DNA of 64,000 nucleotides from an uncultured Leptospirales bacterium. GTDB taxonomy: Bacteria > Spirochaetota > UBA4802 > JAKQUI01. Of this stretch, positions 32,619 to 56,361 are shown piece after piece (position 1 is the first letter of the stretch; every line of letters begins with the position of its first letter). Position numbers and translations under genes: made by a program. The notes beneath the pieces are model-generated. The model saw only the letters and a list, made by a program, of their open reading frames with translations, did not search any database and had not been told where the DNA came from. The stretch spans positions 1 to 64,000 of the forward strand of contig CAZZCF010000007.1 of NCBI GenBank assembly GCA_964652955.1. The letters run 5' to 3'.

Positions 32619-33044
32619 AATGATTTCATACTTTCTGGACGCCGGTTAGGCCGGCATGTCGAACTAAACAAAAAAAAAAATATAAACATAATTGAATCCA
32701 TCATAACAATATCACTACTATCGGCCATTGACATGATGGAAACAAACAATTATTCATTATATATGTATCAAGGTAACAGGTGAGGTGATCTACCGTTTCG
32801 ACACAGGGGAGAAGAGCTCTGATAAGAATGCGGATAGTGAGTTCTCTGTGTCAAGGAGTGCTCATATAAATAAACGCGGTGAACCTCCGAATTTTATGAG
32901 CTTACCTATGACAACGGAATTGTACAGAAAACGAAAATCATCTAATGGTCATGCATACCTGTGGTGTTGCATCCGTTAAATATAAAGCACATCCGGTCAT
33001 TGCAGAGAGCGGTACCGGAAAATTTAAGGGAGGATTATAATCGC

Positions 33045-33989: not shown

Positions 33990-34043
33990 AGATATTACCT
34001 CTCGTGAGGTATACCTATCCGGAAACCATTTAAGGAGAATGAA

Positions 34044-34991: not shown

Positions 34992-35161
34992 TGGGAGCTG
35001 AAAATATATCGGTCATTAAGATGGGAGATACGCTCATGGTTACGGTTCCGGCCGATCCGGACGACGAGACGGTATTCGCGCTGCAGGAGCGGATTCTCGC
35101 GGCAATGGAGAAGCAAGAGGTGAAGGAGCTTGAGGATTGCATTGTTGAAGATCTTCATTGA
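34991..35161 (+). pseudogene. Truncated duplicate of rsbS (first about 40 aa of the STAS protein, then diverges and stops)
   Basis: TAATG overlap with the paralog-2 stop. Encodes MGAENISVIKMGDTLMVTVPADPDDETV..., identical to the N-terminus of the intact RsbS at 36219, then out-of-family sequence and a stop after 56 aa. Confidence 0.6.
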
Positions 35162-35226
35162 GGTAAATGATTCAACTGTAATTTGATAATAATATTCGAA
35201 GATGTATTAAATTATAGGAGTATGGC

Positions 35227-36219
35227 ATGAGCAATGAGAGGAAAACAAAAAAAAAGCTTATCGAAGAACTGGAGGGACTGCGCGGCAAAATAACTGAACT
35301 CGAAGGGGCTATGTCTGAAGAAGAACCGATGTTACGTCGCGAACAGGATTTGATAGAGCTGAACAGGATGATGATATCGGCTTCAACGTTCGGTATTATC
35401 GTGTATAAGGCTTCCGGACAATGTGTTATTGCAAACGAAACGGCAGCCAAATCCATCGGTGCAACCAGAGAACAGGTGTTGCAGCAAAACTTTTACCATA
35501 TAGAATCATGGGAAAAGAGCGGTTTGCTTGAGGCAGCGAAAGGAGCACTCAAAGATGGATCGGATAAGAAGATTGAAATACATACTATTTCAACATTTGG
35601 GAAGGATATCTGGTTGGGATGCCGTTTTACTCCGTTTGTATACCTTGATGAACAATACCTCATGCTCATTTTTGAAAATATTACCGACCGGATTATCGTT
35701 TCACAGGAGCTGCAAAGAACCCGTGACGAACTGAAGGAGAAAAACGAGAAACTCGAGAAGGAGATATCAGAGGGCAGAAAACGAGAGGAGATAATAAGAC
35801 GGCAGCATCAGGAAATACTGGAGCTCTCAACACCTGTCATGAAAATCTGTGAGGGCGTGGTGGCGGCGCCTCTCATCGGCACACTGGACAGCCAGCGGAC
35901 GCAGCAGTTCATGGATGTCTTTCTCAATGCCATTGTTGATAACAACGCGCCGGTTGCTCTGGTGGATATCACCGGAGTTCCCACCATCGATACGCAGACC
36001 GGCCAGCATCTCATCGAGGCCATATCGGCGGCGCGCCTCCTGGGAACCGAGGTGATTCTCACCGGAGTGCGGCCCGCCATCGCGCAGACCCTGGTGCATC
36101 TCGGAATCGATCTCTCAGATCTCAGGACCTGCTCCTCCCTATCGGCAGGGCTGAGCATGGCGCTGAGGACGCTCAACCGGGAGGTCATATCAAGAGATGA
36201 CATACAAGGAGATCTGTAA
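35227..36219 (+). CDS. RsbR-like stressosome sensor paralog 3: PAS domain, coiled-coil, STAS domain
   Basis: 330 aa. PAS N-domain. The C-terminal STAS is nearly identical to paralog 2 (ELSTPVMKICEGVVAAPLIGTLD...NREVISRDDIQGDL). Confidence 0.8.
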   Translation: MSNERKTKKKLIEELEGLRGKITELEGAMSEEEPMLRREQDLIELNRMMISASTFGIIVYKASGQCVIANETAAKSIGATREQVLQQNFYHIESWEKSGLLEAAKGALKDGSDKKIEIHTISTFGKDIWLGCRFTPFVYLDEQYLMLIFENITDRIIVSQELQRTRDELKEKNEKLEKEISEGRKREEIIRRQHQEILELSTPVMKICEGVVAAPLIGTLDSQRTQQFMDVFLNAIVDNNAPVALVDITGVPTIDTQTGQHLIEAISAARLLGTEVILTGVRPAIAQTLVHLGIDLSDLRTCSSLSAGLSMALRTLNREVISRDDIQGDL

Positions 36220-36599
36220 TGGGAGCTGAAAATATATCGGTCATTAAGATGGGAGATACGCTCATGGTTACGGTTCCGGCCGATCCGGACGACGAGACGG
36301 TATCCGCGCTGCAGGAGCGGATTCTCGCGGCAATGGAGAAGCACGAGGCCAAGGGATTGATACTTGACTTATCCACCGTCGAGACGATGGATTCCTTTTT
36401 CGCGCGGATTGTGGCCGAGACCGCACAGATGGTTCAGCTCATGGGCGGCCGGACGGTGATCGCGGGGATGCGGGCGAGCGTTGCCATCACCACCACGCAG
36501 CTGGGGCTGACCCTGGGGAATGCCATGACCGCCCTCGACGTGGACTGGGCGCTCCTGATGCTCGTCAGGAAACCGGCCGGAGGCATTGGGGATGAATGA
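36219..36599 (+). CDS. rsbS: RsbS-like single-STAS anti-sigma-factor antagonist (stressosome scaffold)
   Basis: 126-aa STAS-only protein with the conserved phosphorylatable region (LILDLSTVETMDS). Translationally coupled (TAATG) to the preceding rsbR paralog. Confidence 0.82.
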   Translation: MGAENISVIKMGDTLMVTVPADPDDETVSALQERILAAMEKHEAKGLILDLSTVETMDSFFARIVAETAQMVQLMGGRTVIAGMRASVAITTTQLGLTLGNAMTALDVDWALLMLVRKPAGGIGDE

Positions 36600-37008
36600 C
36601 AACGAAAATCCGATTGGCGAGGTTCCAATTCAGAACGAGGGCGATATCGTATCGGCCCGTAAGGTCGCGAGAGAGGTGTCGCAAAAGCTCGGATTCGGCG
36701 TCACCGATGTCACCCGAATCGTGACTGCGGTCTCGGAGCTGGCGCGAAATATCTACCGCTTTGCCGGAACGGGGATAATGCGCTGGAGTGTCATGAACGA
36801 GGGTATTGTCGGTATTGAGCTCATATTCGAGGACAAGGGACCCGGCATCACCGATATTGAACAGGCTATGGGCTTGGGATTCACCAGCGGGCAGGGACTG
36901 GGGATGGGGCTTCCCGGAGCCAGGCGGCTCATGGATGAGCTGGAGATCGAGTCGCGGGTGGGAGTCGGCACCACGGTGACGGTGCGAAAGTGGCTCAAGA
37001 GAAAATAA
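36586..37008 (+). CDS. rsbT: RsbT-like GHKL serine kinase (switch protein)
   Basis: 140 aa. N-box SELARNIYRFAG, G1 DKGPGI, G2 GLGMGLPG. Overlaps the rsbS 3' end as in rsbRST operons. Confidence 0.82.
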   Translation: MGMNDNENPIGEVPIQNEGDIVSARKVAREVSQKLGFGVTDVTRIVTAVSELARNIYRFAGTGIMRWSVMNEGIVGIELIFEDKGPGITDIEQAMGLGFTSGQGLGMGLPGARRLMDELEIESRVGVGTTVTVRKWLKRK

Positions 37009-37009
37009 C

Positions 37010-38023
37010 GTGATTGATTCGGAACATTCCATACCGGTAACGCACACAGGCGATGTGAACAGAGCGCGCACGGCAGCAAGGGAAGCAGCCGTGAATATCG
37101 GTTTTGCCGAGAAGGAGGGGGAGGAGATCGCCCTGGTGACAAGCGAGCTCGCCACCAACCTCTGCAAGCATGCGAGGGGCGGCGTTCTGATCATCTCGGC
37201 AATCGGGGAAGGAACGAAGCGGGGGATTCAGGTTGAAACGTCCGACCGGGGGCCGGGAATAGCCGATGTCGACGATGCAATGACCAACGGCTTTTCCACA
37301 ACGGGGAGCCTCGGGTACGGGATTGGAACGGTTATCAGGCTCATGGATGAGGTTGCTGTCAGTTCCCTGGAGAAGGATGCCGGCACGAGGGTGATCTGCA
37401 AAAGATGGGTTCGCGATATGAGTGACGGGGTAAAGAGATGTCCGCTCGATTTCGGCGTTGCAATCCGTCCCCGTCCGGGGAGCAGCCTTAACGGCGATGC
37501 GTATGTAATCAGGAAGTGGAACGATTGTGCACTGGTCGGACTCATCGACGGTCTCGGGCACGGACAGTTTGCTCATCGTGCATCGCAGACGGCAAAGAAG
37601 TACATCGAGAGGCATTTCGAACAGCCGCTGCAGAATCTCTTTCTCGGGACGGCGCGGCAGTGCCGGTCAACGCGGGGAGTGGTGATGGCGCTTGCCCGTT
37701 TCGACTGGGAAGCAAAGCGGCTCACCTTCGCGAGCGTGGGGAATGTCGAGGTGCGGGTAGTAAATAGCCACGAGAAGTTTTCTTTTATTCAGCGGCGTGG
37801 CGTCATCGGTCTCAATGCGCCCGCTCCGGCGGTTACCGAGCACCGGTGGGAGGAGCACTATATTATGATTATGCATACGGATGGATTGAGAACGCGATGG
37901 CAGTGGAAGGATTTTCCGGAGCTCGTCGAGCAATCGGCAACCGAAGCAGCGCGTTTGTTTCTCCATAAGCTTGCAAAGGATATTGACGACGCAGCGGTTC
38001 TGGTGGTGAAGAGGAGAATATGA
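37010..38023 (+). CDS. Fusion protein: RsbW/RsbT-like GHKL kinase domain plus PP2C (SpoIIE-type) serine phosphatase domain
   Basis: 337 aa, GTG start. N-terminal GHKL motifs (SELATNLCKHARGG, DRGPGI, GYGIG). C-terminal PP2C metal-binding Asp motifs (GDAYVI, DGLGHG, MHTDGL). Confidence 0.78.
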   Translation: MIDSEHSIPVTHTGDVNRARTAAREAAVNIGFAEKEGEEIALVTSELATNLCKHARGGVLIISAIGEGTKRGIQVETSDRGPGIADVDDAMTNGFSTTGSLGYGIGTVIRLMDEVAVSSLEKDAGTRVICKRWVRDMSDGVKRCPLDFGVAIRPRPGSSLNGDAYVIRKWNDCALVGLIDGLGHGQFAHRASQTAKKYIERHFEQPLQNLFLGTARQCRSTRGVVMALARFDWEAKRLTFASVGNVEVRVVNSHEKFSFIQRRGVIGLNAPAPAVTEHRWEEHYIMIMHTDGLRTRWQWKDFPELVEQSATEAARLFLHKLAKDIDDAAVLVVKRRI

Positions 38024-38880
38024 AACAGGAGGAATTGCAGAAAAAGCTTGATAAGGCCTTGAGAACAATTCAGTCGCTTCAAGGTGAGCTCAGAGAGACC
38101 AATCAGGGCGTCATAGCACTCAACCTTGAGCTGGAGCAGCGGGTTGAGGAGAAGGAGAGGGCGGAGGAAGCGCTCCAGGATGCAAACAAGGAGCTCGAAG
38201 CCTTCAGCTACTCGGTATCGCATGACCTCCGGGCGCCGCTGCGTGCCATTGACGGCTTCGCCAATATACTCCTCGAGGAGTACAATGATGTGCTCGATGA
38301 TGAGGGGAAACGATTAATCGGTATAATTATGAAAAACGTCAATTCGATGGGGCAGCTCATCGACGATCTCCTGGCTTTCTCCCGGTTGAGCCGTCAGCAG
38401 ATGCAGCGTTTGGTGATAGACGTGCGACCGCTGGTTCAGGAGGTTGTCGACAATCTCATGCAGAGTGAAAATAACCGAAATATCGAATGGAAGATCGACG
38501 CGCTCCCCCCGGTGATCGGCGATCGCTCCATGATCCGGCAGGTCTACGCCAATCTCCTCTCCAACGCGATCAAGTTCACCCGGAAGCGGGATATCGCCCG
38601 CATCGAGGTGGGAGCACGTAAATGTGATGAGGAGATTGTCTATTTTGTACGGGATAACGGTGCGGGATTCGATATGCAGTATCAAGAGAAGCTCTTTGTC
38701 GTTTTCCAGCGGCTGCACAGCGAGAAGGATTTCGAGGGGACCGGTGTCGGTATGGCCAACGTCAGGCGCATCGTTCACCGGCACGGGGGACGGATCTGGG
38801 CGGAGGGGAAGGTCGGCGAGGGCGCGACTTTTTATTTTACCATTCCACCCGAGGAGGGAACCGATGAAATATCCCGATGA
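38020..38880 (+). CDS. Soluble histidine kinase (N-terminal coiled-coil, HisKA, HATPase_c). No sensor domain.
   Basis: 286 aa. About 60-aa coiled-coil, then H-box SHDLRAPL and GHKL motifs (DNGAGFD, GTGVGMA). ATGA overlap with the upstream gene. Confidence 0.85.
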   Translation: MKQEELQKKLDKALRTIQSLQGELRETNQGVIALNLELEQRVEEKERAEEALQDANKELEAFSYSVSHDLRAPLRAIDGFANILLEEYNDVLDDEGKRLIGIIMKNVNSMGQLIDDLLAFSRLSRQQMQRLVIDVRPLVQEVVDNLMQSENNRNIEWKIDALPPVIGDRSMIRQVYANLLSNAIKFTRKRDIARIEVGARKCDEEIVYFVRDNGAGFDMQYQEKLFVVFQRLHSEKDFEGTGVGMANVRRIVHRHGGRIWAEGKVGEGATFYFTIPPEEGTDEISR

Positions 38881-44153: not shown

Positions 44154-46859
44154 ATGACTGAAAAACTGAAGATTCTGATCCTTGAAGACAGTCCCGACGA
44201 CTGCGAGCTGATGGAGCGCGAGCTCAGGAAGGGGAAAATTTCCTTTGCCGCCACGCGCGTCGAGACGGAAGAGGATTATATCAGGGAGATCGAGAATAGT
44301 ACCCCCGATATTTTACTCGTTGATTACGCCCTTCCGAGCTTCGACGGGCTCTCGGCGTTGCGCATCTCGATGGAAAAGCGCCCCGGCGTGCCCTTCATCT
44401 TCGTCTCGGGAGTCATCGAGGAGGAGACAGCCATCGAGAGCCTGAAGGCGGGAGCCACCGACTACGTCTTTAAGCACCGGCTCTCCCGGCTGGTCCCCGT
44501 GGTGAAACGGGCGCTGCGGGAGGTCGAGGAGCGCGGGGAGCTGGAGCGTGCCGAGCGGGCGCTCAGGGATTCCGAGAGACGATACCGTGAGCTGGTGGAG
44601 AACATCAACGACGTGATATTCTCCCAGGACGCCGAGGGTCGCATTGTCTATATCAGCCCCGCCCTGGAGCGGATGAGCCAGTACAAAACCGAAGATATCA
44701 TCGGCAAATCCTTTATAGAGCTTGTTCACCCGGAGGATCTCCCCGGACTGATGGAGAGCTATACCCGAACCATGGAAGGGAGCCGGGAGCCGTGGGAATT
44801 CCGGATGTTCGACAAGGACGGCTCCGTTCGCTGGGTGCGGACATCGAGCAGGCCCCTGGTCAGGGATGGTGAGATTGCTGGTTTGCTGGGGATTTTGACC
44901 GACATCACCGAGCGTAAATTAGATGAAGAACGGATACGGCATCTCAACCTGGTGATTCGCTCGATCCGGAATGTCAATCAGCTCATCACCAAGGAGAAGG
45001 ATCGGGATAGACTGCTCCAGGGGGCCTGCGACAACCTGGTAGAGAACCGCGGGTATTATAAATGCTGGATTGCCCTTCTGGGCAGCGACGGACGGCTTCT
45101 GAAGCATAAGGAGGCCGGATGGGGGGATGCGCTTTCCCAGAAGATCGATATGGCCGAAAAGGGCAAACACGCCCTAATGGTCAGAAGGACGCTGGAGCAA
45201 CCGGGCGTCGCCGTTGTCATGGATCCCGCACGGGAGTGTTTCGACTGTCCCCTGTCAAGTTACTACGAAGAGGGAATGGCGGCGATGACCTCGCGACTTG
45301 AGTACGAGGGGACGGTGTACGGTCTCATCAGCGTTACCATTCCTGCAGCGATTGCCGTTGACGAAGAGGAACAGAGCCTTTTTCAGGAGGCTGCAGATGA
45401 CATCGCCTTCGCCCTCCATAACATCGAGATGGAGAAGGAGCGTGACGCCTCTCAACGGGATCTTGCCGAGCGTATCAAGGAGATGAGCTGTCTCTATCGG
45501 ATAAACGAGATAGGCCGGCGGGAAGATTACTCCATTGACGATTTTCTCCGGGAGACCGTCAGGATAATGCCGGACGGATGGCAGTTTCCGGAGTTGACCG
45601 GCTGCCGCATCGTCTTTGAGGGGAAAGAATATAGAACAGATAATTTCAGGGAAACCGAGTGGAAGCAGGAAGACGATATAATCATCAACAGGGAGCGGGC
45701 GGGGAAGATCGAGGTGTGTCTCCTGGAGCCTCCTCACGCGGACGAGGAGCCCTTTCTCCATGGTGAAGAAGAGCTCATCGGGGCAATCGCCTTCACCCAT
45801 GCCGTCATCATCCATCAGTGGCAGACGGTGGAAGCCCTCCGGAAGAGCGAGGAGAAATATCGGACCATTCTCGAGCAGATGGTGGAGGGATATTTTGAGA
45901 GCGATTTGAAAGGAAACATTACCTTTGTCAACAAATCGGTATGTGAAGCAATGGGATATGAGAAGGATGAGTTTATAGGCATGAATTACCGGCAGATCAC
46001 GGGCGAGACGAACGCGCAGAAGGTCTGGCAAGTGTACAACGACGTTTATCGCAGCGGGGAGCCTAAAAAGAACGCAGAGCACGATTTAATAAGAAAAAAC
46101 GGGAGCAGGATATCCGTTGAGGGATCCGTCGACTTGATTAGAGACCGGTCGTCGAATCCCATTGGTTTCAGAAGCGTCGTGCACGATGTCACCGATAGAA
46201 AGAAGGCCGAGGAGCAGATACGCCAGTCGCTGCGGGAGAAGGAGATCATGCTGCAGGAGATTCATCACCGGGTGAAGAACAACATGCAGATTATCTCCAG
46301 CATGCTGGGGCTTCAGAAGAAATACATCCGGGACGAACGGGATATCGAGCTCTTCAGAGACAGCCAGAGCCGCATTCGCTCCATGGCCCTGGTTCACGAG
46401 AAGCTCTATCGATCGAGGAATCTGGCGCGGATCGACTTTGCCGAATACACGAGGGATCTCGTCGATCAGCTGTTGCAGTTCTATAACGTAAAGAAGATGG
46501 ACATAGACTTCAAAATTGAATTTGAGAGCATATATTTCGGCGTTGACATCGCCATTCCCTGCGCCCTCATCATCAACGAGCTCGTCTCGAATTCGCTGAA
46601 ACACGCTTTCCCCGATGGTATGAAGGGGATACTATACGTTCATCTCACCAAAGATGGAGACATGTACCTTCTGACCGTGAGCGACAACGGTATCGGCTTC
46701 CCCAAAGGGATCGACTTTCAAAAAACCGAATCGCTCGGCCTGCAGCTCGTCGACGCCTTTGTCAGGCAGATCAAGGGGAGCATATCGCTTGAGCGGAAGG
46801 GAGGAACCTCTTTCAACATCGCGTTCAAGGATAAAAAAGCAGGAAAAGGTATTACATGA
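44154..46859 (+). CDS. Hybrid sensor kinase: REC, PAS, GAF, PAS, HisKA_2, HATPase_c
   Basis: 901 aa. REC paralogous to that of 42530. PAS domains, a central GAF-like region, H-box EIHHRVKNNMQIISSMLGL typical of HisKA_2/HWE-like kinases, and a C-terminal ATPase. Confidence 0.85.
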   Translation: MTEKLKILILEDSPDDCELMERELRKGKISFAATRVETEEDYIREIENSTPDILLVDYALPSFDGLSALRISMEKRPGVPFIFVSGVIEEETAIESLKAGATDYVFKHRLSRLVPVVKRALREVEERGELERAERALRDSERRYRELVENINDVIFSQDAEGRIVYISPALERMSQYKTEDIIGKSFIELVHPEDLPGLMESYTRTMEGSREPWEFRMFDKDGSVRWVRTSSRPLVRDGEIAGLLGILTDITERKLDEERIRHLNLVIRSIRNVNQLITKEKDRDRLLQGACDNLVENRGYYKCWIALLGSDGRLLKHKEAGWGDALSQKIDMAEKGKHALMVRRTLEQPGVAVVMDPARECFDCPLSSYYEEGMAAMTSRLEYEGTVYGLISVTIPAAIAVDEEEQSLFQEAADDIAFALHNIEMEKERDASQRDLAERIKEMSCLYRINEIGRREDYSIDDFLRETVRIMPDGWQFPELTGCRIVFEGKEYRTDNFRETEWKQEDDIIINRERAGKIEVCLLEPPHADEEPFLHGEEELIGAIAFTHAVIIHQWQTVEALRKSEEKYRTILEQMVEGYFESDLKGNITFVNKSVCEAMGYEKDEFIGMNYRQITGETNAQKVWQVYNDVYRSGEPKKNAEHDLIRKNGSRISVEGSVDLIRDRSSNPIGFRSVVHDVTDRKKAEEQIRQSLREKEIMLQEIHHRVKNNMQIISSMLGLQKKYIRDERDIELFRDSQSRIRSMALVHEKLYRSRNLARIDFAEYTRDLVDQLLQFYNVKKMDIDFKIEFESIYFGVDIAIPCALIINELVSNSLKHAFPDGMKGILYVHLTKDGDMYLLTVSDNGIGFPKGIDFQKTESLGLQLVDAFVRQIKGSISLERKGGTSFNIAFKDKKAGKGIT

Positions 46860-48247
46860 GAGGAGACGCTCGCAACGCGAAGAAAATACTGATTGTCGAG
46901 GACGTCATCATCGTTGCGATGGACATGAAGGATAAGCTCGAGCGGATGGGATTCGAAGTCGTCGGTATGGCAGCCTCCGGGGAGGAGGCGATAGAGAAGG
47001 CCCATCAGATCGAGCCGGATCTCATCCTCATGGACATCATGCTCGACGGCGACATCAACGGCATCGAGGCGGCACAGGAGATTCGGGATACGCTCTCCAT
47101 ACCGGTCATCTACACGACCGCGCTCTCCGGAGAAGAGGTGATCGAGCGCGCCCAGATCACCGATCCCTACGGCTACCTGATCAAGCCCATTGAGGAGAAG
47201 GATCTACTCATTTCGATCGAGATAGCCCTCAGGAGGCATGAGTTCGAAAAGAAGCTGGAGGAGAGCGAGAAGCGCTTTCGCACGCTCTTCGAGGAATCGA
47301 AGGACGCCATCTATATAAGGGACAGCGAAGGGAATTATGTCGATCTCAACCGATCGATGCTCGAGCTCTTTGGCTATGAGCGGGGGGACATGGCGGACCT
47401 CACCGTGAATGGCCTCTTTGCTGATCGGGATGATATTGCTTCATTTGAGCATACCCTGCGGGAAGTGGGATTCGTAAAGAACCTCGAAGTGAATATGCAG
47501 CGAAAGGACGGCACCGGGCTCATCTGCGTGTTGACGGAGAATGCGCTGCGGGAGAACGGAGCGATAACCGGCTATCAGGGTGTTATTCGCGATATTACCG
47601 ATAGAAAGCGCTCCGAGGAGGAGATACGGAGAGGGTACGAAAAGCTGCGTAAAACCATCGACGGCATTGTGCAGGCGATGTCGCTCACCGTCGAGGCGCG
47701 TGACCCTTACACGGCGGGCCATCAGAGGCGGGTGGCGGAGCTCGCCGCGGCAATTGCCGACGAGATGGGGCTCGACGAACAACAGATAGAGGGGATCAGG
47801 ATGGCAGGGGTAATACACGATCTCGGGAAGATATACGTTCCCTCGGAGATACTGAGCAAGCCGGGGAAGATTACCGATGCCGAGTTCAACATCATCAAGA
47901 TGCACCCGCTGGTGGGGTACGATATACTGAAGACCATAGACTTCCCCTGGCCCATTGCGCAGATTGTACATCAGCATCACGAACGAATGGACGGCTCCGG
48001 GTATCCGCAGGGACTTACGGGAGACGATATTCTCATCGAGGCGCGGATCATGGCCGTTGCGGACGTGGTCGAGGCCATGGCATCGCACCGTCCCTACCGG
48101 CCCGCTCTCGGCATCGATGTTGCTCTCGACGAGATCCGGAAGAACAGGGGCCGCTACTATGATCCCGATGTGGCCGACGCCTGCCTTCGGCTCTTTGATG
48201 AGAAGGGATACCGCATAGAGACAAAAGCAGACACGCTGCTTTTTTGA
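46856..48247 (+). CDS. Response regulator with PAS and HD-GYP domains (second paralog)
   Basis: 463 aa. FixJ-like REC (DLILMDIMLDG...PVIYTTA), PAS, HD-GYP (HQRRVAEL, IHDLGK, HHERMDGSGYPQGL). Confidence 0.85.
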   Translation: MRGDARNAKKILIVEDVIIVAMDMKDKLERMGFEVVGMAASGEEAIEKAHQIEPDLILMDIMLDGDINGIEAAQEIRDTLSIPVIYTTALSGEEVIERAQITDPYGYLIKPIEEKDLLISIEIALRRHEFEKKLEESEKRFRTLFEESKDAIYIRDSEGNYVDLNRSMLELFGYERGDMADLTVNGLFADRDDIASFEHTLREVGFVKNLEVNMQRKDGTGLICVLTENALRENGAITGYQGVIRDITDRKRSEEEIRRGYEKLRKTIDGIVQAMSLTVEARDPYTAGHQRRVAELAAAIADEMGLDEQQIEGIRMAGVIHDLGKIYVPSEILSKPGKITDAEFNIIKMHPLVGYDILKTIDFPWPIAQIVHQHHERMDGSGYPQGLTGDDILIEARIMAVADVVEAMASHRPYRPALGIDVALDEIRKNRGRYYDPDVADACLRLFDEKGYRIETKADTLLF

Positions 48248-50616
48248 ATGGAATTGATGCTATGAAATCGAAGCGTATACTTATTGTCGAGGACGAGATA
48301 CCAACCGCCATGTACCTTCGGGGTATTCTGGAGGGGAGGGGATACAGTGTCGCCGGTGCAGTCGCCACCGGCGAGGAGGCGCTTGCACGCTTCAAAGCCG
48401 AGCAGATAGACCTCGTCCTCATGGACATCATCCTGGAGGGGGAGATGGACGGGATTGAGACGTCGCGTCGCATCAAGAAGCTGCGGGATGTTCCGATTAT
48501 CTACCTCACCGCGAGCACCGACGAGAGGAACCTCAGCCGCGCGATGGAAACCGAGCCGCACGGCTATCTTATCAAGCCGATAGACGAATACGAGCTCTAT
48601 TCGACGGTGGAAACGACTCTCATACGGGATTCCCTGGAGAAGAAGATCAGGGAGAGCGAGGAGAAATACCGAACCCTCGTTGGGAATCTCAACGATGTGC
48701 TCCTTACCGTTGATACCGCGGGAACGATTACCTACATCAGTCCGGTGATCGAGCGGATGAGCGGATATATGGTGGATGAAATTTCCGGGAGAAATTTCAC
48801 CGATTTCATTCATCCCGATGACCTTCATGCGCTCCTCGAGAGCTTCACTTCAACGCTGAAGGGAGATCTTGCGCCATCCGAGTTCAGGATGCTTGACAGG
48901 GATGGAACGGTGCGTCACATGCGGTCCTCGAGCAGGCCTATTGTTGAGAAGGGAGAAGTGGTCGGCCTCTCGACGCTCATGACCGACATCACCGATCGGA
49001 AGATGCTCGAAGCGGAAAAGGATCGCTTCCTTGCGGACCTTGCAGAGCGAACGAAGGAGCTGGGATGTCTCTACAACATATCGAAAATTTTCGAGAACCG
49101 GGAACTTCCCCTCAACGCAATATTGAAAGAAATGACAAAGGCCATCCCCGAGGCGTGGCAATATCCGGACATGGTGCAGGCGAGAATCGTCTACGACGGC
49201 AGGGAGTACCGTCCGAGGAATTTCTCCCAAAAAGCGCATGCGATAACGGCGGATATTGTCGTCAGGGGCGAGAAGGCCGGTTATGTTCAGGTTTCCTATC
49301 GCGAGAAACGTACGACTCAGAGTGAGGAACCCTTTCTGGCGGAGGAACAGAAGCTCCTCGACGTTATCGTCGAACGGCTCGGAACCATAATTGAGCATAA
49401 ACAGGCGGATGAGGAGCTCCGCATCGCCCGACGCGAGATTGAGAGCCTCCTTGCCGCAATAACCTCGATTCTCATTCAGGTCTCGACAAAGGACCAGGTG
49501 ATTCGCTGGAACAGGATTGCCGAGATCACCTTCGGCATACCGGCTTCCGCGGTGCTGAACCGTAAGTTCTCCCAGTGCTCAATTAAATGGGAATGGGATA
49601 ATATCTATGAGGGGATATTCTACTGCATTGCCGAGGATAAACCCGTTCGGCTCGATGAAATCGTCTATGTTCGACCGGATGGGAAGAAGCGTTTTCTCGG
49701 CATCACGGTCAATCCTATAAAGGATGTTGACGACACGCTCATGGGTTTTCTCCTCTTCGGAACCGATATCACCGAACGGAAGAACATGGAGAGCCAGCTT
49801 CTCCAGGCGCAGAAGCTTGAATCGATAGGGCAGCTCGCTGCCGGCATCGCCCACGAGATTAATACGCCCACGCAGTACGTGAACGATAACGTACACTTTC
49901 TGCAGGGCGCCTTCGCCGATTACCAGAGGCTTCATGAGCGATGCGATCTGCTCGTTGCCGCCGTACGGGAGGAAGGCACCACAGTTGAGATGGCGAAGCA
50001 GATAGAATCAATCAAGGGAGAGATAGATTTCCCCTTCATCAACGAGGAGATCCCGAAGGCAATCGAACAATCGATAGACGGCCTGGGTCGCATCTCGCGG
50101 ATTGTGCAGTCGATGAAGCAGTTCTCACATCCGGGAACCGACAATAAAGTCGACGAGGATATCAATAAAGCGCTGGAAAATACGGTTGCCATTTCACGAA
50201 ACGAATGGAAATACGTTGCCGATGTGGAAACAGACTACGATCCGGACATCCCCCGCGTTCCCTGCTTTCCCGGCGAGCTGAACCAGGTCTTTCTCAACAT
50301 ACTGGTGAACGCCGCACAGGCCATCGAGGAGAAAAACAGGGGGAGCGATGAAAAAGGGGTGATACGCATCAGCACCAGTCAGGTTGAAAGCTCCGTAGAG
50401 ATACGCATCAGTGATACCGGAAAGGGGGTTCCGCCGGACATACAGTCGAAGGTTTTTGATCCCTTTTTCACCACGAAGGCGGTGGGAAAGGGAACGGGGC
50501 AGGGACTCGCTATATCGCACGCTGTTATCGTTGAGAAGCACGGCGGCACCATTTCGCTCGAGTCGGAGATGGGGAAGGGGACAATATTTACTATTCGATT
50601 ACCGCTGGAGGGATAA
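48244..50616 (+). CDS. Hybrid sensor kinase: REC, PAS, GAF-like, PAS, HisKA, HATPase_c
   Basis: 790 aa. REC (DLVLMDIILEGE...PIIYLTA). H-box region QLAAGIAHEINTP. GHKL motifs DTGKGVP and GKGTGQGLA. Confidence 0.85.
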   Translation: MNGIDAMKSKRILIVEDEIPTAMYLRGILEGRGYSVAGAVATGEEALARFKAEQIDLVLMDIILEGEMDGIETSRRIKKLRDVPIIYLTASTDERNLSRAMETEPHGYLIKPIDEYELYSTVETTLIRDSLEKKIRESEEKYRTLVGNLNDVLLTVDTAGTITYISPVIERMSGYMVDEISGRNFTDFIHPDDLHALLESFTSTLKGDLAPSEFRMLDRDGTVRHMRSSSRPIVEKGEVVGLSTLMTDITDRKMLEAEKDRFLADLAERTKELGCLYNISKIFENRELPLNAILKEMTKAIPEAWQYPDMVQARIVYDGREYRPRNFSQKAHAITADIVVRGEKAGYVQVSYREKRTTQSEEPFLAEEQKLLDVIVERLGTIIEHKQADEELRIARREIESLLAAITSILIQVSTKDQVIRWNRIAEITFGIPASAVLNRKFSQCSIKWEWDNIYEGIFYCIAEDKPVRLDEIVYVRPDGKKRFLGITVNPIKDVDDTLMGFLLFGTDITERKNMESQLLQAQKLESIGQLAAGIAHEINTPTQYVNDNVHFLQGAFADYQRLHERCDLLVAAVREEGTTVEMAKQIESIKGEIDFPFINEEIPKAIEQSIDGLGRISRIVQSMKQFSHPGTDNKVDEDINKALENTVAISRNEWKYVADVETDYDPDIPRVPCFPGELNQVFLNILVNAAQAIEEKNRGSDEKGVIRISTSQVESSVEIRISDTGKGVPPDIQSKVFDPFFTTKAVGKGTGQGLAISHAVIVEKHGGTISLESEMGKGTIFTIRLPLEG

Positions 50617-50624
50617 TCGGGAAG

Positions 50625-50996
50625 ATGCCACAGGATAAAATGGGAATACTCTTTGTCGATGACGATCCGAAACTGCTCGAAGGCCTGCGGAGAATGCTCA
50701 GGGGAAAGCGAGAGGTCTGGGAGATGGCCTTTGTGGTAAGCGGAAGGGAAGCGCTCGCGGTGCTTGCCGGATCTCATATCGATATAATTGTCGCAGACTA
50801 CAAAATGCCGGGGATGAACGGCTTCGAGCTTCTGGAAAAGGTGAAGGATGAGTATCCGCATATCAGGCGGATTCTCCTCACCGGGCAGTCCGATGAGGAG
50901 GTCTTCGCGCGATCCGGGGAGATCGTACACCGCTACCTCTCCAAGCCCTGTGAGCCGGGAGTGCTCATCGAAACGCTCGAACATATTTCTACATAA
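50625..50996 (+). CDS. Single-domain response regulator (REC only)
   Basis: 123 aa. Acceptor IVADYKMPGMNG. Conserved K in LSKP. Confidence 0.8.
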   Translation: MPQDKMGILFVDDDPKLLEGLRRMLRGKREVWEMAFVVSGREALAVLAGSHIDIIVADYKMPGMNGFELLEKVKDEYPHIRRILLTGQSDEEVFARSGEIVHRYLSKPCEPGVLIETLEHIST

Positions 50997-51005
50997 GGAC
51001 ACATT

Positions 51006-52535
51006 ATGAAACCTGATGCTGTTAGCATACTCATCGTTGAGGATTCGGTAACAACGGCGATGTATATCGACAGAATGCTCAATGATCGGGGATATGAAAA
51101 AATACGGAGAGCGGTTTCGGGTACCGAGGCGCTGACGATGGTACGGGAAGAGCCGCCGGATCTTGTACTGATGGATATTATGCTGGAAGAGGATATGGAC
51201 GGTATCGAGACGACACACACCATAAAGGAGTACCTCGATGTTCCGGTCATTTATATAACCGCCAATACAGACGAGCGGAATCTTCAGCGAGCGCGGGAGA
51301 CCAATCCCCATGGATACCTCATTAAACCGATAAATGATTTTGAGCTCTACACGGTTGTCGAGATGGCGCTGTTCAGGCATCAGCTCGAAAAGAAAATCGC
51401 CGAGAGCGAGGAGCGATACCGCACGCTCCTCTCGTCAATATCGTCAATTCTCATCGGAATCGACACCGGCGCTATCATCACGCACTGGAATGCCGTTGCC
51501 GAGAATACCTTCGGCAGAACCGCTTCCGAGGTAATAGGTCGCAGTATTTACGATTTCGAAATATGCAGGGACCGGGAGGCCATACGTGATGGCATCTCCC
51601 GGAGCCGGAGTGGTAATGAGGCGGTATCTTTAACCGATATTCCATTCACGAACCGGAATGGTGAGGAAGGGTATCTCGGGATTACTATTAGTGTGATCAG
51701 ATCACCCGGAGGAACGATTACCGGTTTTCTCCTGTACGGGAAAGACGTTACCGAGAAGCGAATGTTGGAACAACAGCTCATTCAGTCGAGCAAAATGGCC
51801 TCGCTCGGCGAGATGGCGACCGGCATCGCCCATGAGATCAATCAACCTCTGAATGTCATCAAGATAGCCGCACAGCTTGTCAAAGACAGCATTATTGAGA
51901 ATGACTATACGCCGGGTTTCATCGAGGAGCGCTCGGATGTCATCCTGTCCCAGGTGGAGAAGGCATCCGGGATTATCGATCATATACGTACCTTCGGCCG
52001 CAAGGATGACCTGAACTTCACCGACCTCGATCCCCATAAGCCGATCAGGGACGCTTTTACGCTTCTCGGGGAGCAGCTCAAAAACCATTCCATTGAATAC
52101 TCCCTGGAGCTGGACCATGCCGAATGTATTATTTCCGGCGACGCGAACCGCCTGGAGCAGGTCTTCATCAACCTGATAATCAATGCGCGAGACGCCCTCG
52201 ATACCTATGAGTGCTCTGATCAAAAAAGTATAAAGGTCTTATCATTACACGATGCGGATAATGGAACGATAGTAATTCACTTCGAGGATAACGGGCCGGG
52301 AATTCCCGACACCGGTGTCAATAAAATATTCGAGCCTTTTTTTACCACCAAGGAGGTCGGGAAGGGAACCGGACTCGGCCTCTCCATCAGTTACAGCATC
52401 ATCAAATCGCATGATGGTTCGATAAAAGTGAGCTCGGGTAAAGCGGGGACACGCTTCACCATAGCGCTGCCTGTGAAACGTGTTTCCGGTGAGCAGTGCA
52501 GCAATTCAGGAAAAGTGCGGGAGGTGCCACATTGA
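51006..52535 (+). CDS. Hybrid sensor kinase: REC, PAS, HisKA, HATPase_c
   Basis: 509 aa. REC (DLVLMDIMLEED...PVIYITA), one PAS, H-box ATGIAHEINQP, ATPase DNGPGIP and GKGTGLGLS. Confidence 0.85.
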   Translation: MKPDAVSILIVEDSVTTAMYIDRMLNDRGYEKIRRAVSGTEALTMVREEPPDLVLMDIMLEEDMDGIETTHTIKEYLDVPVIYITANTDERNLQRARETNPHGYLIKPINDFELYTVVEMALFRHQLEKKIAESEERYRTLLSSISSILIGIDTGAIITHWNAVAENTFGRTASEVIGRSIYDFEICRDREAIRDGISRSRSGNEAVSLTDIPFTNRNGEEGYLGITISVIRSPGGTITGFLLYGKDVTEKRMLEQQLIQSSKMASLGEMATGIAHEINQPLNVIKIAAQLVKDSIIENDYTPGFIEERSDVILSQVEKASGIIDHIRTFGRKDDLNFTDLDPHKPIRDAFTLLGEQLKNHSIEYSLELDHAECIISGDANRLEQVFINLIINARDALDTYECSDQKSIKVLSLHDADNGTIVIHFEDNGPGIPDTGVNKIFEPFFTTKEVGKGTGLGLSISYSIIKSHDGSIKVSSGKAGTRFTIALPVKRVSGEQCSNSGKVREVPH

Positions 52536-53290
52536 ATAGAAAACTCATTCTTCTGGTTGATGACGAGCCCGATATCTGTGCCGAGATGAGTATCTTCCTG
52601 TCCAAAAAGGGATATGACGTGATTGTCGCAAACAATGGGAAGGATGCAATCGACCTTTTTAAATTAAGAAATCCGATTCTGGTGATAACCGATTTCAAGA
52701 TGCCCGGGATGGACGGTATTGAGCTCCTCAAAAAGATAAAGCTCATCAACCGCGACATTCACGTCATCCTCATGAGCGGCGTTGCGGATATAAAAACAAC
52801 GGTCACCGCCATGAAGGCCGACGCCTTTGACTTTGTCGCGAAGCCGGTTGATTTAAAAAAACTTGAACAGGCAATTAAGGTTGCCATTCAGCGGGCGGTT
52901 GATTCTCTCTCGAGAAAGGGAAAGAAGCTGGTGAGCCTCTTCCTTACCCATGAAGGGCTTGAAGGTGAGCAGCCGGTCTCCGTTCTGTACTTCAATATTA
53001 ATATTGATGAATACTCTCAGGAGCGCTATCGTGCCGAGTTCCATGATCTCATGGTAGATGGCCATCTGCGGGAACATATTATATTCAACATGCAAAGTGT
53101 GATGTATATCAACAATATCGGGCTGAACTTTCTCATCTATATTAAAGAGTCACTGAATGAGCGTAACCATAAAATATATATGTGCAATGTTCAGAATCCG
53201 GTGCAGAATTATCTAAGTACCCTCGGGTACAGCAGCTTTTTCAACGTGGAGACGAGCCTTGAAACTATTATTGAGAAGATTCGCTACTGA
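52496..53290 (+). CDS. Response regulator with a C-terminal STAS (anti-sigma-factor-antagonist-like) domain
   Basis: 264 aa. REC (ILVITDFKMPGMDG), then an about 110-aa domain resembling SpoIIAA/STAS. The start may instead be the TTG at about 52532 overlapping the upstream stop. Confidence 0.7.
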   Translation: MQQFRKSAGGATLNRKLILLVDDEPDICAEMSIFLSKKGYDVIVANNGKDAIDLFKLRNPILVITDFKMPGMDGIELLKKIKLINRDIHVILMSGVADIKTTVTAMKADAFDFVAKPVDLKKLEQAIKVAIQRAVDSLSRKGKKLVSLFLTHEGLEGEQPVSVLYFNINIDEYSQERYRAEFHDLMVDGHLREHIIFNMQSVMYINNIGLNFLIYIKESLNERNHKIYMCNVQNPVQNYLSTLGYSSFFNVETSLETIIEKIRY

Positions 53291-53382
53291 TTCTGGTGAT
53301 ATACCATCGTTCTTAGAGGGGAATGATCTTCCTGATGTGATTCAGGAACGCTCCGGCAGAGGCGGTGGGTAAGGAGAAAATA

Positions 53383-54537
53383 ATGGAAGAAAAAATTCTG
53401 GTTGTCGATGATGAGCAGAACGTGCTTGACGGTATCAAGCGGCACCTGCACGGCAAGCTGAATATAATCACTGCCGGATCGGGTATGGAAGGCCTGGAGA
53501 TGATAAAGACCAGCGAGCCCTTTTCGGTGGTTGTTTCCGACTACAAGATGCCGCAGATGAACGGCGTCATGTTTCTTGCGAAGGTGGGTGAGATGGCACC
53601 CGACACCGTTAAGATTATGCTCACCGGACAGGCGGATATGCAGGCAATTATCGATGTCATCAATCAGGGAACCATATTCCGATTTCTGACAAAACCGTGT
53701 CCTCCCGATCTGCTCAGGAAAAATATTTATGATGGCATTCATCAGTATCGATTAATCAACGCCGAGAAGGAGCTTCTCGGGAAGACCCTCAGCGGGAGCA
53801 TCAAGCTCCTCAGCGATCTCCTTGCGCTGGCGAAACCGGAAGCCTTCAGCCGCTCTCTGCGCGTGCGGCATATCGTGCGGCAGATTGCCGAAAAGATGGA
53901 TCTGGGGAATATATGGCAGGTCGAGATTGCGGCGATGCTGTCCCAGATAGGCTGTATAACCATTCCGGATTCGATACTCAGCAAGGTGTACCGGGATATT
54001 CGGCTTCATCCCGATGAGATGCTCATGTTCGAGAATCATCCGAAAACCGGAAGCGAGATGCTTGCCAATATCCCCCGTCTGGAGCCGGTTGCCGAGATTG
54101 TGCTGTATCAGGAGAAGCTCTTCGACGGCACCGGTTTCCCCCGCGATAAGAGAAGCGGCGAGGATATTCCCCTGGGCGCCCGCATCCTGAAGGTTGCCCT
54201 GGACTTCGACAAGATGCTTCAATCCGGATTGGACACGAATGAGGCCATAGATGAAGTGAAGAAGCGTATGAGATGGTATGATTATAAAGTTGTTCAAAAA
54301 CTTGATAAAACAATATCGCGTGACAACAAAAAGAAGAAGATCTATACGGTTAAAGAGGTCATGATCGATCATTTAGACGATACCATGCTCCTTGCCAAGG
54401 AGCTCGTCTCCGCTTCGGGAGTGGTTCTCGGGAGCAAAAACCAGCGGTTGACCAAATCGATGATAATAACGCTGAAGAATTACAGAAAGAACAGGGAGAT
54501 AAAAGATCCCATTATGGTGGTGGTTCCGCTCACGTGA
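53383..54537 (+). CDS. Response regulator with a degenerate HD-GYP-like output domain
   Basis: Start chosen at MEEKIL (AAGGAG RBS; track ORF starts at 53365). REC intact (VVVSDYKMPQMNG). The output domain aligns with HD-GYP but lacks the HD dyad (SQIGCITIP) and has YQEKLFDGTGFP in place of HHE...GYP. Confidence 0.7.
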   Translation: MEEKILVVDDEQNVLDGIKRHLHGKLNIITAGSGMEGLEMIKTSEPFSVVVSDYKMPQMNGVMFLAKVGEMAPDTVKIMLTGQADMQAIIDVINQGTIFRFLTKPCPPDLLRKNIYDGIHQYRLINAEKELLGKTLSGSIKLLSDLLALAKPEAFSRSLRVRHIVRQIAEKMDLGNIWQVEIAAMLSQIGCITIPDSILSKVYRDIRLHPDEMLMFENHPKTGSEMLANIPRLEPVAEIVLYQEKLFDGTGFPRDKRSGEDIPLGARILKVALDFDKMLQSGLDTNEAIDEVKKRMRWYDYKVVQKLDKTISRDNKKKKIYTVKEVMIDHLDDTMLLAKELVSASGVVLGSKNQRLTKSMIITLKNYRKNREIKDPIMVVVPLT

Positions 54538-54590
54538 GCTAATATGCCGGGGAAGACCTCCGATAAAAAATTTGAGCACTGTAATCGACC

Positions 54591-55982
54591 ATGAATGATA
54601 TTCGCCTGCTCATCGTTACAAGAAACCCTGATAGGTGCTCATGGCTCATGGAAACACTGCTGGAGGGGCATTACAATATCATTGTTGTCAACCGGATTGC
54701 AGAGGCGAAACGGAAAACAAAAAATGAATACTTTGATTTAATCATTGCCTTGACCGATTCGATTACGGAGAGCGATTCGGCAATACGGCGGTTCATAAAT
54801 GGAGAGGATCTCAACAAGAAGATACCCGTCCTTCTGATGAATCCCGAGAAGCTCACGGTCGAATTATTTTTTCGCTGGCTCAACAGGGGAATGGGACATC
54901 ACATCAACAATCCGTATCAGAAAGAGTATCTCATAACGAGCATACGGGAATTAATAAACAGCAGTAATCCGAAGGATGCGAAGAACGAACGTATCTGCAT
55001 GGAGATAAAGTCAGATAAAAAAAAGTATTCACTTAAACTGGGTAAAGCGCAGTTAAGAGATTTCCTGGTATCAACCATCAGGAATGCCGTACAGCAGAAT
55101 CTCATGATTCAAAAGGCCCGGGAAGAGCTGACCGCGCTTAATGAGAATACCATGAGAGATTCCCCGGAGGATATTGTATCAGCGGGGAACCGAAAGAGCG
55201 ATGGTTTAAAAAAGGAACTGATAGCCGCATTCGAAAATGAAGAATTTACGGTATACTATCAGCCGATTGTTTCTCTCAAGCGGGGGAAGATTGCCGGTTT
55301 TGAGGCGCTTGCCCGGTGGGAGCATCCAAGCAGAGGGCTCGTGAAGCCAGACGCGTTTATTCCGCATGCCGAGGAGACGGGGCTTATTATCCCCCTGGGG
55401 AACTGGATAATCGAGAAGTCGGTCGGGCAGCTGAAGAAGTGGCATGAGACTTTCCATTCCGATCCTTCCCTTTCTATAAGTATCAATCTCTCGGCTGTTC
55501 AGTTCAGACATGAGGGACTGTACGAAACCATCGAAGAGATAGTTGCCCGTTACCGCGTCCCTCCCGATACAATCAAGTTTGAGATTACGGAAAGCGCCCT
55601 CATGGAGGACAAGGAATCAGCTAATATGATGCTCCTCAAGCTCAAAGCAATGGGTTTTCAGATCTGCATGGATGATTTCGGAACCGGCTATTCATCGCTC
55701 AGCTATCTCAGGCACTTTCCCGTTGATATTCTCAAGATAGACAAGTCCTTTGTTCGATGGATGGGTTTTGACGATGAGAGCGAGGTCATTGTGCAGATAA
55801 TCGTTCAACTGGCCCATTTCCTTCACATGCAGGTCATCGCCGAAGGAATTGAGAATCAGGAGCATTACCGGAAGCTCAGTGAGCTCTCCTGCGAGTACGG
55901 GCAGGGATATCTTTTTTCAAAACCGATCGATGCCCGATCGGCAGAAGAGCTGTTACGATCTGAAACGGTTTGGAATTGTTAG
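54591..55982 (+). CDS. EAL-domain c-di-GMP phosphodiesterase with an N-terminal pseudo-receiver domain
   Basis: 463 aa. The N-terminal REC-like fold has Ala at the acceptor position (DLIIALTD). The C-terminal EAL has catalytic motifs (QPIV, FEALARW, DDFGTGYSSLSYL, KIDKSF, EGIE). Confidence 0.8.
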   Translation: MNDIRLLIVTRNPDRCSWLMETLLEGHYNIIVVNRIAEAKRKTKNEYFDLIIALTDSITESDSAIRRFINGEDLNKKIPVLLMNPEKLTVELFFRWLNRGMGHHINNPYQKEYLITSIRELINSSNPKDAKNERICMEIKSDKKKYSLKLGKAQLRDFLVSTIRNAVQQNLMIQKAREELTALNENTMRDSPEDIVSAGNRKSDGLKKELIAAFENEEFTVYYQPIVSLKRGKIAGFEALARWEHPSRGLVKPDAFIPHAEETGLIIPLGNWIIEKSVGQLKKWHETFHSDPSLSISINLSAVQFRHEGLYETIEEIVARYRVPPDTIKFEITESALMEDKESANMMLLKLKAMGFQICMDDFGTGYSSLSYLRHFPVDILKIDKSFVRWMGFDDESEVIVQIIVQLAHFLHMQVIAEGIENQEHYRKLSELSCEYGQGYLFSKPIDARSAEELLRSETVWNC

Positions 55983-56034: not shown

Positions 56035-56361
56035 CTAATTCACATAACAAATATTTTTCTCGGCATTGATGACGCCATTCCCTGCGAAATGATTATCAAC
56101 GAGCTTGTCGCGAATTCATTGAAATACGCCTTTCCCGACCAAAGTAAGGGTGAAATATCAATAGATTTTCACAAGGACTCTTCGGGGGATCATACTCTCG
56201 TCGTGCGTGATAGCGGTGTGGGAGTTCCCGATAATATTGACATTTCAACAACTGAATCCCTCGGTTTGCATCTGGTGCATTCCTTGACAAAACAGCTGAA
56301 AAGGGATGTTGCTCTGGATAGGAGGAACGGAATGGCGGTAACCGTTATATTTCCCGAATGA
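56035..56361 (+). pseudogene. 3' remnant of a HisKA_2-type histidine kinase gene (HATPase_c domain only)
   Basis: The frame opens just after a stop. It encodes IDDAIPCEMIINELVANSLKYAFPD...TESLGLHLV, paralogous in protein and DNA to the C-terminus of 44154..46859. No upstream H-box or sensor. Confidence 0.55.

Follow-up and report, generated by a model that had tools for sequence, protein, structure and literature searches.

How might a two-component phosphorelay be joined to a partner switch when the anti-sigma-factor antagonist itself carries the receiver domain? This question is raised by a gene in a 64,000-nucleotide (nt) stretch of DNA from an uncultured Leptospirales bacterium (assembly GCA_964652955.1, contig CAZZCF010000007.1, positions 1 to 64,000), the whole of which we call the window. 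A preliminary description of the window had assigned the open reading frame (ORF) at 52496-53290 to a rare and poorly characterised fusion of a receiver (REC) domain to an anti-sigma-antagonist-like STAS domain. It had proposed that the protein is controlled by Asp rather than Ser/Thr phosphorylation and is functionally linked to a stressosome module and a GHKL-PP2C fusion encoded upstream. The analysis described here supports the architecture, the STAS type and control through Asp, and does not support the functional link. With reasonable though not strong confidence, we propose that the REC-STAS protein is the response regulator of a dedicated PAS-kinase/REC-STAS pair, in which phospho-Asp would gate a protein-binding STAS output.

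The ORF list returned exactly the coordinates given above for the maximal ORF (52496..53290, + strand, GTG start, 264 aa). Translation probably begins at an in-frame TTG, 52532, yielding a 252-aa protein (coding sequence 52532..53290, +), because Shine-Dalgarno spacing, stop-codon overlap and homologue N-termini all agree on this position. A strong Shine-Dalgarno sequence, GGGAGGTG (52519-52526), is located 5 nt before the TTG, the TTG overlaps the TGA stop codon of the upstream gene (52533-52535) to give TTGA, and aligned homologues begin at this position, for example P0002 (252 aa, 88% identical). Independent metagenome assemblies hold an identical protein (P0001) as well as the 88%-identical P0002, demonstrating that the gene is real. 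Residue numbers below follow the 252-aa version, and the two Pfam ranges (18-128 and 157-257) follow the 264-aa ORF.

The receiver domain (52547..52879, +) was matched by Pfam Response_reg PF00072 at residues 18-128 (E=3.5e-28, 98.4 bits, cutoff 30.2). An NCBIfam scan of the protein gave receiver-domain matches to many regulators only, all far under the family cutoffs. Conservation was assessed on a close family of 20 sequences and on a diverse alignment of 29 sequences sharing 30-48% identity with the target. D10, D11, D54, S82 and K104 are invariant in the 20 close and in 29/29 diverse relatives, and the aromatic switch residue F101 is kept in 28/29, with Tyr in the remaining sequence. The alignment identifies Asp54 (codon GAT, 52691-52693, +) as the predicted phospho-acceptor, with D10/D11, S82 and K104-P105 intact around it. 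In an AlphaFold2 model, for which the 20 close-family sequences supplied the alignment, the receiver adopts the canonical (beta-alpha)5 fold, running b1-a1 to b5-a5 with a long last helix (residues 108-131), and Foldseek superposed it on the receiver domains of Spo0F, VicR and KdpE with a root-mean-square deviation (rmsd) of about 1 Å. Judged by these alignments, the receiver retains all residues required for Asp phosphorylation.

The C-terminal half was matched by Pfam STAS PF01740 at residues 157-257 (E=4.5e-10, 39.7 bits, curated cutoff 22.6), covering profile positions 6-105 of 106, and a search with PF13466 (STAS_2) gave no match for the target protein itself. The PF01740 match means that the outcome named in the preliminary description as refuting its proposal, a C-terminal domain without a significant STAS match, did not occur. 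Together with phmmer, searches of the PDB using the family STAS profile placed this domain (52964..53266, +) with the SpoIIAA/RsbV type. The best PDB matches were the anti-sigma antagonist TM1442 (7.5e-8) and SpoIIAA (2e-6 to 2.4e-5), compared to 0.32 for RsbS, above 0.1 for SLC26 STAS domains and 0.95 for MlaB. The same profile scored 27.1 bits against B. subtilis SpoIIAA, compared to at most 2.6 bits against the four stressosome STAS proteins of the window (RsbS and RsbR1-3). The motif Y-I-N-N-x-G-L is essentially invariant in the family (N194 29/29, N195 28/29, G197 29/29) and reads I-N-N-I-G-L in the target, with the Asn194-Asn195 codons at 53111-53116 (+). In the HMMER (phmmer) alignments, the target segment yinnigl lies opposite fmdssgl of SpoIIAA (1th8_B), and in 1tid_B (fmdasgl) an Ala is opposite the second Asn of the target. 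These alignments indicate that Asn195 occupies the canonical phospho-Ser position and that Asn194 substitutes for the preceding Asp. In the model, Asn195 is at the N-terminus of the predicted STAS helix alpha2, which we take to be the place equivalent to that of Ser58 in SpoIIAA. The STAS domain is, on this evidence, of the SpoIIAA/RsbV kind and is not phosphorylatable at the canonical site, because Asn stands for Ser. The position at which the preliminary description had looked to a conserved phosphorylatable Ser/Thr is thus Asn in 28/29 relatives and is preceded by Asn in 29/29, consistent with control through the receiver Asp.

The closest subfamily is therefore that of the SpoIIAA/RsbV antagonists, with which the domain also shares the predicted fold and the LDE, xGL and LGY motifs. 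These antagonists carry a phospho-Ser after an Asp, whereas the REC-STAS proteins have the essentially invariant Asn-Asn. The latter are also distinguished by a fused N-terminal receiver and by a histidine kinase as the conserved neighbour; an RsbW/SpoIIAB-type kinase, a PP2C phosphatase and a sigma factor are not among the conserved neighbours. Both the phosphorylatable Ser and an adjacent cognate Ser kinase are thus missing, and neither the STAS subtype nor the conserved rsbS-rsbT association of the stressosome RsbR/RsbS proteins was found. The protein should be annotated neither as an RsbV/SpoIIAA orthologue nor as an RsbR paralogue, though it may act in an antagonist-like manner.

The AlphaFold2 model as a whole had a mean predicted local distance difference test score (pLDDT) of 82.9 and a predicted template modelling score (pTM) of 0.51. 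Predicted STAS elements are b136-141, b149-154, a163-176, b182-186, a195-210, b214-218, a222-231 and a243-251, with block-mean pLDDT of 80-95 across residues 151-250, and the C-terminal half of the model has the classical STAS strand/helix order. Between the two well-folded domains, pLDDT falls below 50 at residues 128-133. This low-confidence segment and the end of REC helix alpha5 make up the inter-domain linker (52880..52963, +). The pTM of 0.51 means that the relative placement of REC and STAS is not fixed by the model. Searching the whole model against the PDB with Foldseek gave REC-dominated results, either receiver domains or unrelated two-domain regulators at high rmsd, and no solved REC-STAS structure. 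In the family alignment, the linker joining the anchors A118 and D159 ranges in length between 36 and 56 residues, with an identity of just 16% over residues 119-150. A linker this variable and tolerant of indels favours tethered occlusion/release or dimerisation over rigid helical transmission.

How common is this fusion? Searching 5.8 billion proteins through a word index yielded 20 full-length relatives at 44-88% identity, after which the scores fall to receiver-only proteins. A STAS-only profile, run exhaustively with HMMER against 1.84 billion cluster representatives, gave 49 matches at E<=1e-10; about 28 of these are 248-292 aa long with the STAS match at residues ~135-250, and all 28 were REC-STAS proteins once aligned. 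The full-length profile recovered about 42 clusters (268-325 bits), followed by a gap down to receiver-only proteins. A STAS-only alignment used against the word-indexed database returned one 150-aa protein and missed known members, and was not used for family size. The REC-STAS family is small, amounting to about 40-50 clusters among 1.8-5.8 billion proteins, and its members carry generic source annotations ('anti-anti-sigma factor', 'hypothetical protein', 'response regulator'). A literature search found no paper on a receiver fused to the STAS antagonist itself, an architecture that may be listed in Galperin's response-regulator censuses or the Sharma STAS review. Both the rarity of the fusion and its lack of characterisation are consistent with what the preliminary description had claimed.

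A scan of GTDB, using one genome for each of 185,579 species, confirmed 20 loci with a relative, all in metagenome-assembled genomes. Spirochaetota account for nineteen of them (Leptospirales/Leptospiraceae, Turneriellaceae and Spirochaetia), the twentieth has no label beyond 'bacterium', and two REC-STAS copies occur in several of the genomes. A second, distant group of REC-STAS proteins (P0338, P0346 and P0357; 236-241 aa, 29-35% identity) has the motif V-N-G-(E/A)-G-(L/I) at the phospho-site, so that the Ser is likewise missing, and the gene for P0346 (L035, 10001-10726) closely follows histidine-kinase genes. Receiver-fused STAS domains in general may, on this evidence, have lost the phospho-Ser. 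Giant tandem-STAS proteins that ranked high in the profile search were left out of the family, as they have three STAS repeats and no REC was found in them. These proteins (P0143, P0147, P0152, P0154, P0162, P0164, P0167 and P0168) have architectures unrelated to REC-STAS, including fusions to TPR repeats, to ankyrin repeats with a Ser/Thr protein kinase, and to HATPase_c_2, HAMP, SpoIIE and HTH domains.

The REC-STAS gene is preceded in the window by a gene for a 509-aa REC-PAS-HisKA-HATPase_c histidine kinase (51006..52535, +), with which its start overlaps by 4 nt. The two genes are translationally coupled, and the kinase is the probable cognate of the REC-STAS protein. A single-domain receiver of 123 aa (50625..50996, +) lies before the kinase, and the trio of REC (about 125 aa), REC-PAS-histidine kinase (about 510 aa) and REC-STAS recurs in L005 and L012. 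Among all ~30 loci examined, an adjacent histidine kinase was the sole constant neighbour. In the Pfam-annotated metagenome contigs (L001-L012, L034 and L035), REC-STAS directly follows a same-strand (REC-)PAS-HisKA-HATPase kinase, sometimes overlapping it, wherever the upstream gene could be annotated. The dimerisation/histidine phosphotransfer and catalytic ATP-binding (CA) domains of the window kinase are 51-63% identical to those of the kinases immediately upstream of REC-STAS in seven metagenome loci, compared to 22-29% for other kinases of the same loci or of the window. The histidine kinase was also adjacent in 20/20 genome loci, on the upstream side in 18, where a lone receiver gene intervenes in five, and on the downstream side in two, and its identity to the window kinase is 44-60% in the 12 closer loci and 28-38% in the divergent ones. 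These identities indicate that the adjacent kinase is orthologous in the closer relatives. The two-gene histidine kinase/REC-STAS pair is conserved in uncultured Spirochaetota.

In the mechanism that we propose, the adjacent kinase would phosphorylate Asp54, and this would alter the alpha4-beta5-alpha5 face of the receiver, its oligomeric state, or both. The altered receiver would expose or mask the partner surface of the STAS domain around the N-terminus of helix alpha2, or pair two STAS domains, and the STAS domain would thereby bind or release a partner protein. Asp phosphorylation would in this way take over the on/off role played by Ser phosphorylation when an RsbW/SpoIIAB-type kinase acts on a free-standing STAS protein. 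The Asn-Asn STAS domain would act as a permanently unphosphorylated, pseudosubstrate form, and the fused receiver would be the sole off-switch, because a non-phosphorylatable STAS domain resembles the constitutively binding form of an antagonist. A non-phosphorylatable variant of the STAS-only protein All4160 is active in Anabaena (bioRxiv 10.64898/2026.04.08.717354). The most likely class of partner is a GHKL-fold protein, since SpoIIAA-type STAS domains bind such proteins; candidates are a Ser kinase resembling RsbW/RsbT or an anti-sigma factor, either of them encoded elsewhere, and the CA domain in the REC-STAS protein's own kinase. The main alternative class is an enzyme of cyclic di-GMP (c-di-GMP) metabolism, and we rate the chances of any one specific partner as low.

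A more tentative extension, which we regard as possible and less probable than the paired regulator itself, is that REC-STAS constitutes a distinct response-regulator output class, a one-protein partner switch. Its pseudosubstrate-like STAS domain would sequester a GHKL Ser kinase, an anti-sigma factor or another enzyme and would be engaged or released solely by receiver Asp phosphorylation, with histidine-kinase input replacing the Ser-kinase/PP2C cycle. In this organism the target could be RsbT or the GHKL-PP2C protein, so that stressosome output would be gated.

Several observations weigh against the proposed mechanism. The inter-domain geometry in the model is of low confidence (pTM 0.51), and occlusion or release is hence a step that we infer. 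The case for phosphotransfer from the adjacent kinase consists of gene order and co-inheritance. Across the ~30 loci, the gene lacks a conserved neighbour of the RsbW-kinase, PP2C or sigma-factor type, and none was found in the 64 kb of the window besides RsbT and GHKL-PP2C; the annotation of the window likewise contains no sigma or anti-sigma factor. Exceptions are L010, where a REC-HATPase_c_2 (RsbW-like) protein, a SpoIIE protein and a lone REC lie within a few kb of the gene (881-4890), and L034, where a REC-SpoIIE protein does so (13295-14449). These partner-switching enzymes are possible, unconserved candidate partners. The flanks of the 20 genome loci were probed by single-sequence phmmer, which is insensitive to divergent GHKL/PP2C proteins and limited for RsbT, and the finding of no RsbT/PP2C near these loci is therefore weaker than that from the Pfam-annotated contexts. 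Finally, the strict invariance of Asn-Asn suggests a positive role, possibly a ligand or nucleotide contact, as mere loss of phosphorylation does not explain it.

What the STAS domain acts on may be considered in the light of its neighbours. The stressosome-type operon of the window (32961..38880, +) encodes three RsbR-like proteins, RsbS, RsbT, GHKL-PP2C and a HisKA-HATPase histidine kinase, and the upstream module and fusion of the preliminary description are thereby confirmed, lying at 32961-38023. On this basis the REC-STAS protein could bind RsbT or GHKL-PP2C, or be part of the stressosome itself, an RsbR-like co-antagonist whose sensor domain is REC, with two-component phosphorylation gating the output. 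The operon is on the same-strand island 14-19 kb upstream, RsbT and GHKL-PP2C are the only HATPase_c_2 proteins of the window besides a 90-aa kinase fragment, an RsbRD_N protein is encoded 5.6 kb away in L012, and Vibrio vulnificus stressosomes have two-component or c-di-GMP downstream modules (PMC10014275). However, RsbS/RsbT were found nearby in none of the ~30 other loci, and the stressosome linkage was seen only in this window, where the operon lies 14 kb upstream and is separated from the operon-like block containing REC-STAS by intervening gaps of 473, 437 and 217 nt. The STAS subtype is also wrong for such a role, as the RsbS/RsbR scores of at most 2.6 bits against 27 for SpoIIAA, and the PDB values of 0.32 for RsbS against 7.5e-8 for TM1442, indicate; and the variable linker is unlike the conserved linker helix of RsbR/YtvA-type proteins. 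The idea of an RsbR paralogue with REC as stressosome sensor was rejected on STAS subtype and absent linkage. We consider cross-talk with the stressosome very unlikely, and its proximity in this window is probably incidental.

Proximity of another kind recurs across the family and raises the question of whether the STAS domain instead tunes c-di-GMP by regulating a c-di-GMP enzyme, namely the adjacent REC-HD-GYP protein, the EAL protein or a GGDEF cyclase. Genes for REC-HD-GYP and EAL proteins are immediately downstream in the window. A same-strand REC-HD-GYP gene is beside the kinase/REC-STAS pair in the window, L006, L015, L017, L018, L019, L031 and L032 and 3.3-4.3 kb off in L001 and L008. 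In L010 a protein encoded 3.6 kb off has HD_5 but lacks REC, and L023 has a REC-EAL gene. A convergent PAS-GGDEF gene is directly downstream in L001, L002, L003 and L008, and a PilZ gene is nearby in L001, L008, L009 and L014. In Pseudomonas, HsbA is a STAS protein of this kind, with the cyclase HsbD as its binding partner. STAS control of non-sigma enzymes also has precedent in All4160, which regulates an exopolysaccharide enzyme (bioRxiv 10.64898/2026.04.08.717354). The c-di-GMP genes are recurrent but not universal beside REC-STAS; they are present in roughly a third to half of the loci and missing in L004, L005, L012, L020-L022, L029 and L034. The HD-GYP proteins bear receivers of their own and may be parallel outputs of the same kinases, and chance proximity is likely because c-di-GMP genes are abundant in signalling-rich genomes. 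A direct c-di-GMP target thus appears unlikely. The kinase itself is the only invariant neighbour, and the STAS domain could dock on its GHKL (CA) domain, shifting the kinase/phosphatase balance or the partitioning of phosphotransfer, or the protein could serve mainly as a phosphate sink. STAS domains naturally bind the GHKL fold, many receivers compete in the operon, and CheS binds CheA and redirects phosphate between CheYs (PMC12654446). Against this, ordinary cognate phosphotransfer fully accounts for the adjacency, the suggested STAS-CA contact is drawn by analogy, and in a mere sink, 120 conserved residues with invariant motifs would be superfluous. We therefore give feedback on the kinase little weight, and retain the paired response regulator with a protein-binding STAS output as the preferred reading.

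That two-component systems and partner switching can engage in cross-talk is already well established, with HsbR, SypE, RsbY-type proteins and TciR as examples. RsbY is REC-PP2C, HsbR/PA3346 and SypE combine REC with PP2C and an RsbW-like kinase (PMC8256260), and TciR is a REC-RsbW-like protein (PMC12826045). As in REC-STAS, the receiver of each links two-component signalling to partner-switching parts. In these proteins, however, the receiver controls an enzyme that acts on a separate, Ser-phosphorylatable STAS protein, whereas in REC-STAS the receiver is on the STAS antagonist and the Ser switch is gone. The LOV-STAS protein YtvA and the RsbR-type proteins share with REC-STAS an N-terminal input domain and a C-terminal STAS output; REC-STAS differs in its STAS subfamily, its variable linker and the lack of conserved rsbS-rsbT linkage. 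CheS of Sinorhizobium and Agrobacterium is a STAS-only protein that binds the kinase CheA (PMC12654446). Like REC-STAS it places a STAS domain in a two-component pathway, and it acts on a histidine kinase, but it is free-standing, is encoded in a chemotaxis cluster and has no REC. The conceptually closest working model, by analogy, may be PhyR, with its phospho-Asp-driven partner switching. In PhyR, which serves the alphaproteobacterial general stress response, the receiver phospho-Asp releases a fused sigma-like domain that sequesters NepR. Its sigma-like output fold is unrelated to STAS and its domain order is opposite to that of REC-STAS, and we claim no homology.

Partner switching and two-component signalling are two main logics of bacterial signalling, and in the known links the receiver sits on whichever enzyme, kinase or phosphatase, acts on the STAS protein. 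In the REC-STAS family the STAS antagonist itself bears the receiver, and its own phospho-site has been lost family-wide. If the proposed mechanism is true, a histidine kinase would drive a partner switch directly, without a Ser kinase/phosphatase cycle, the catalogue of response-regulator outputs would be extended, and a simple, genetically tractable two-gene module would be available for studying the choice of STAS partners. Restriction to uncultured Spirochaetota limits the immediate experimental reach. REC-STAS is a tidy, well-delimited and lineage-restricted family, a modular recombination of familiar domains, and the probably incidental nature of its stressosome link matters for the annotation of stressosome downstream modules.

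REC-STAS is part of a tightly packed eight-gene block (44154-55982) with gaps of -4 to +92 nt, in the order REC-PAS-GAF-histidine kinase, REC-PAS-HD-GYP, REC-PAS-histidine kinase, REC, REC-PAS-histidine kinase, REC-STAS, REC-HD-GYP and EAL. Its location within this block of hybrid kinases, HD-GYP and EAL proteins places the pair in a putative branched phosphorelay that would also control c-di-GMP turnover. The first three genes (44154..50616, +) have gaps of -4 to +9 nt, and the first kinase is of the HisKA_2 type. The REC-HD-GYP (HD_5) response regulator (53383..54537, +; HD_5 E=1.3e-41, REC E=1.1e-17), a predicted c-di-GMP phosphodiesterase, is encoded 92 nt 3' of REC-STAS, and its maximal ORF begins at 53365. 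The last gene, after a 53-nt gap, encodes an EAL protein (54591..55982, +; Pfam EAL E=1e-77), also a predicted c-di-GMP phosphodiesterase. The N-terminal ~200 aa of the EAL protein gave no significant Pfam match, only a weak one to UQ_con (E=0.17). Its first ~130 residues look receiver-like by eye, without the acidic pocket, and may be a degenerate pseudo-receiver. Operon boundaries were drawn from intergenic distances only. When promoter and terminator patterns were scanned over 42-57 kb, their counts did not exceed those of shuffled controls, so that the boundaries rest on the gaps.

In the stressosome-type operon, the three RsbR-like genes encode GAF-STAS, PAS-STAS and PAS-STAS proteins, RsbT is encoded at 36586-37008 (+), and the 337-aa GHKL-PP2C protein at 37010-38023 (+) is a HATPase_c_2+SpoIIE fusion. 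The latter combines an N-terminal RsbW/RsbT-like HATPase_c_2 domain and a phosphatase in one protein, and the HisKA-HATPase kinase gene follows with a 4-nt overlap. Bacillus and Vibrio modules have a separate RsbX, in contrast to the fusion of PP2C to HATPase_c_2 in the window. The arrangement otherwise resembles that of Vibrio vulnificus, where rsbRSTX is accompanied by a two-component/c-di-GMP downstream module (PMC10014275).

Both the block and the stressosome operon are in a signalling island (27600-56361, +) of 29 kb with about 20 consecutive same-strand signalling genes. The island is unusually dense, with 11 receiver-bearing genes (including five receiver-fused histidine kinases), three HD-GYP genes, one EAL gene and the stressosome. 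Nitrogen-assimilation genes border it at one end and sugar/uronate genes at the other. Elsewhere the window is ordinary chromosome, where the genes include amt, glnA, carAB, gltBD and those for a methyl-accepting chemotaxis protein and transporters. Three ORFs had no Pfam match at the thresholds used: 21323-23035 (+, 570 aa), 58742-59758 (+, 338 aa) and 61402-62574 (-, 390 aa). The REC-STAS gene has the lowest G+C content of the signalling run (43.9%), most neighbours being at 50-58%. It is also low in the EAL gene at 54591-55982 (46.7%) and in the kinase fragment at 56089-56361 (44.7%), and the block may, as this low G+C hints, differ at its 3' end in origin or in the constraints on it. The fragment belongs to an orphan 90-aa ORF (56037-56361, +) in which a histidine-kinase ATPase (CA) domain stands alone, with no phosphotransfer domain upstream. 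Its product shares 46% identity with a portion of the C-terminal ATPase region in the HisKA_2-type kinase (44154-46859), and it is apparently what remains of a truncated kinase at the island's edge.

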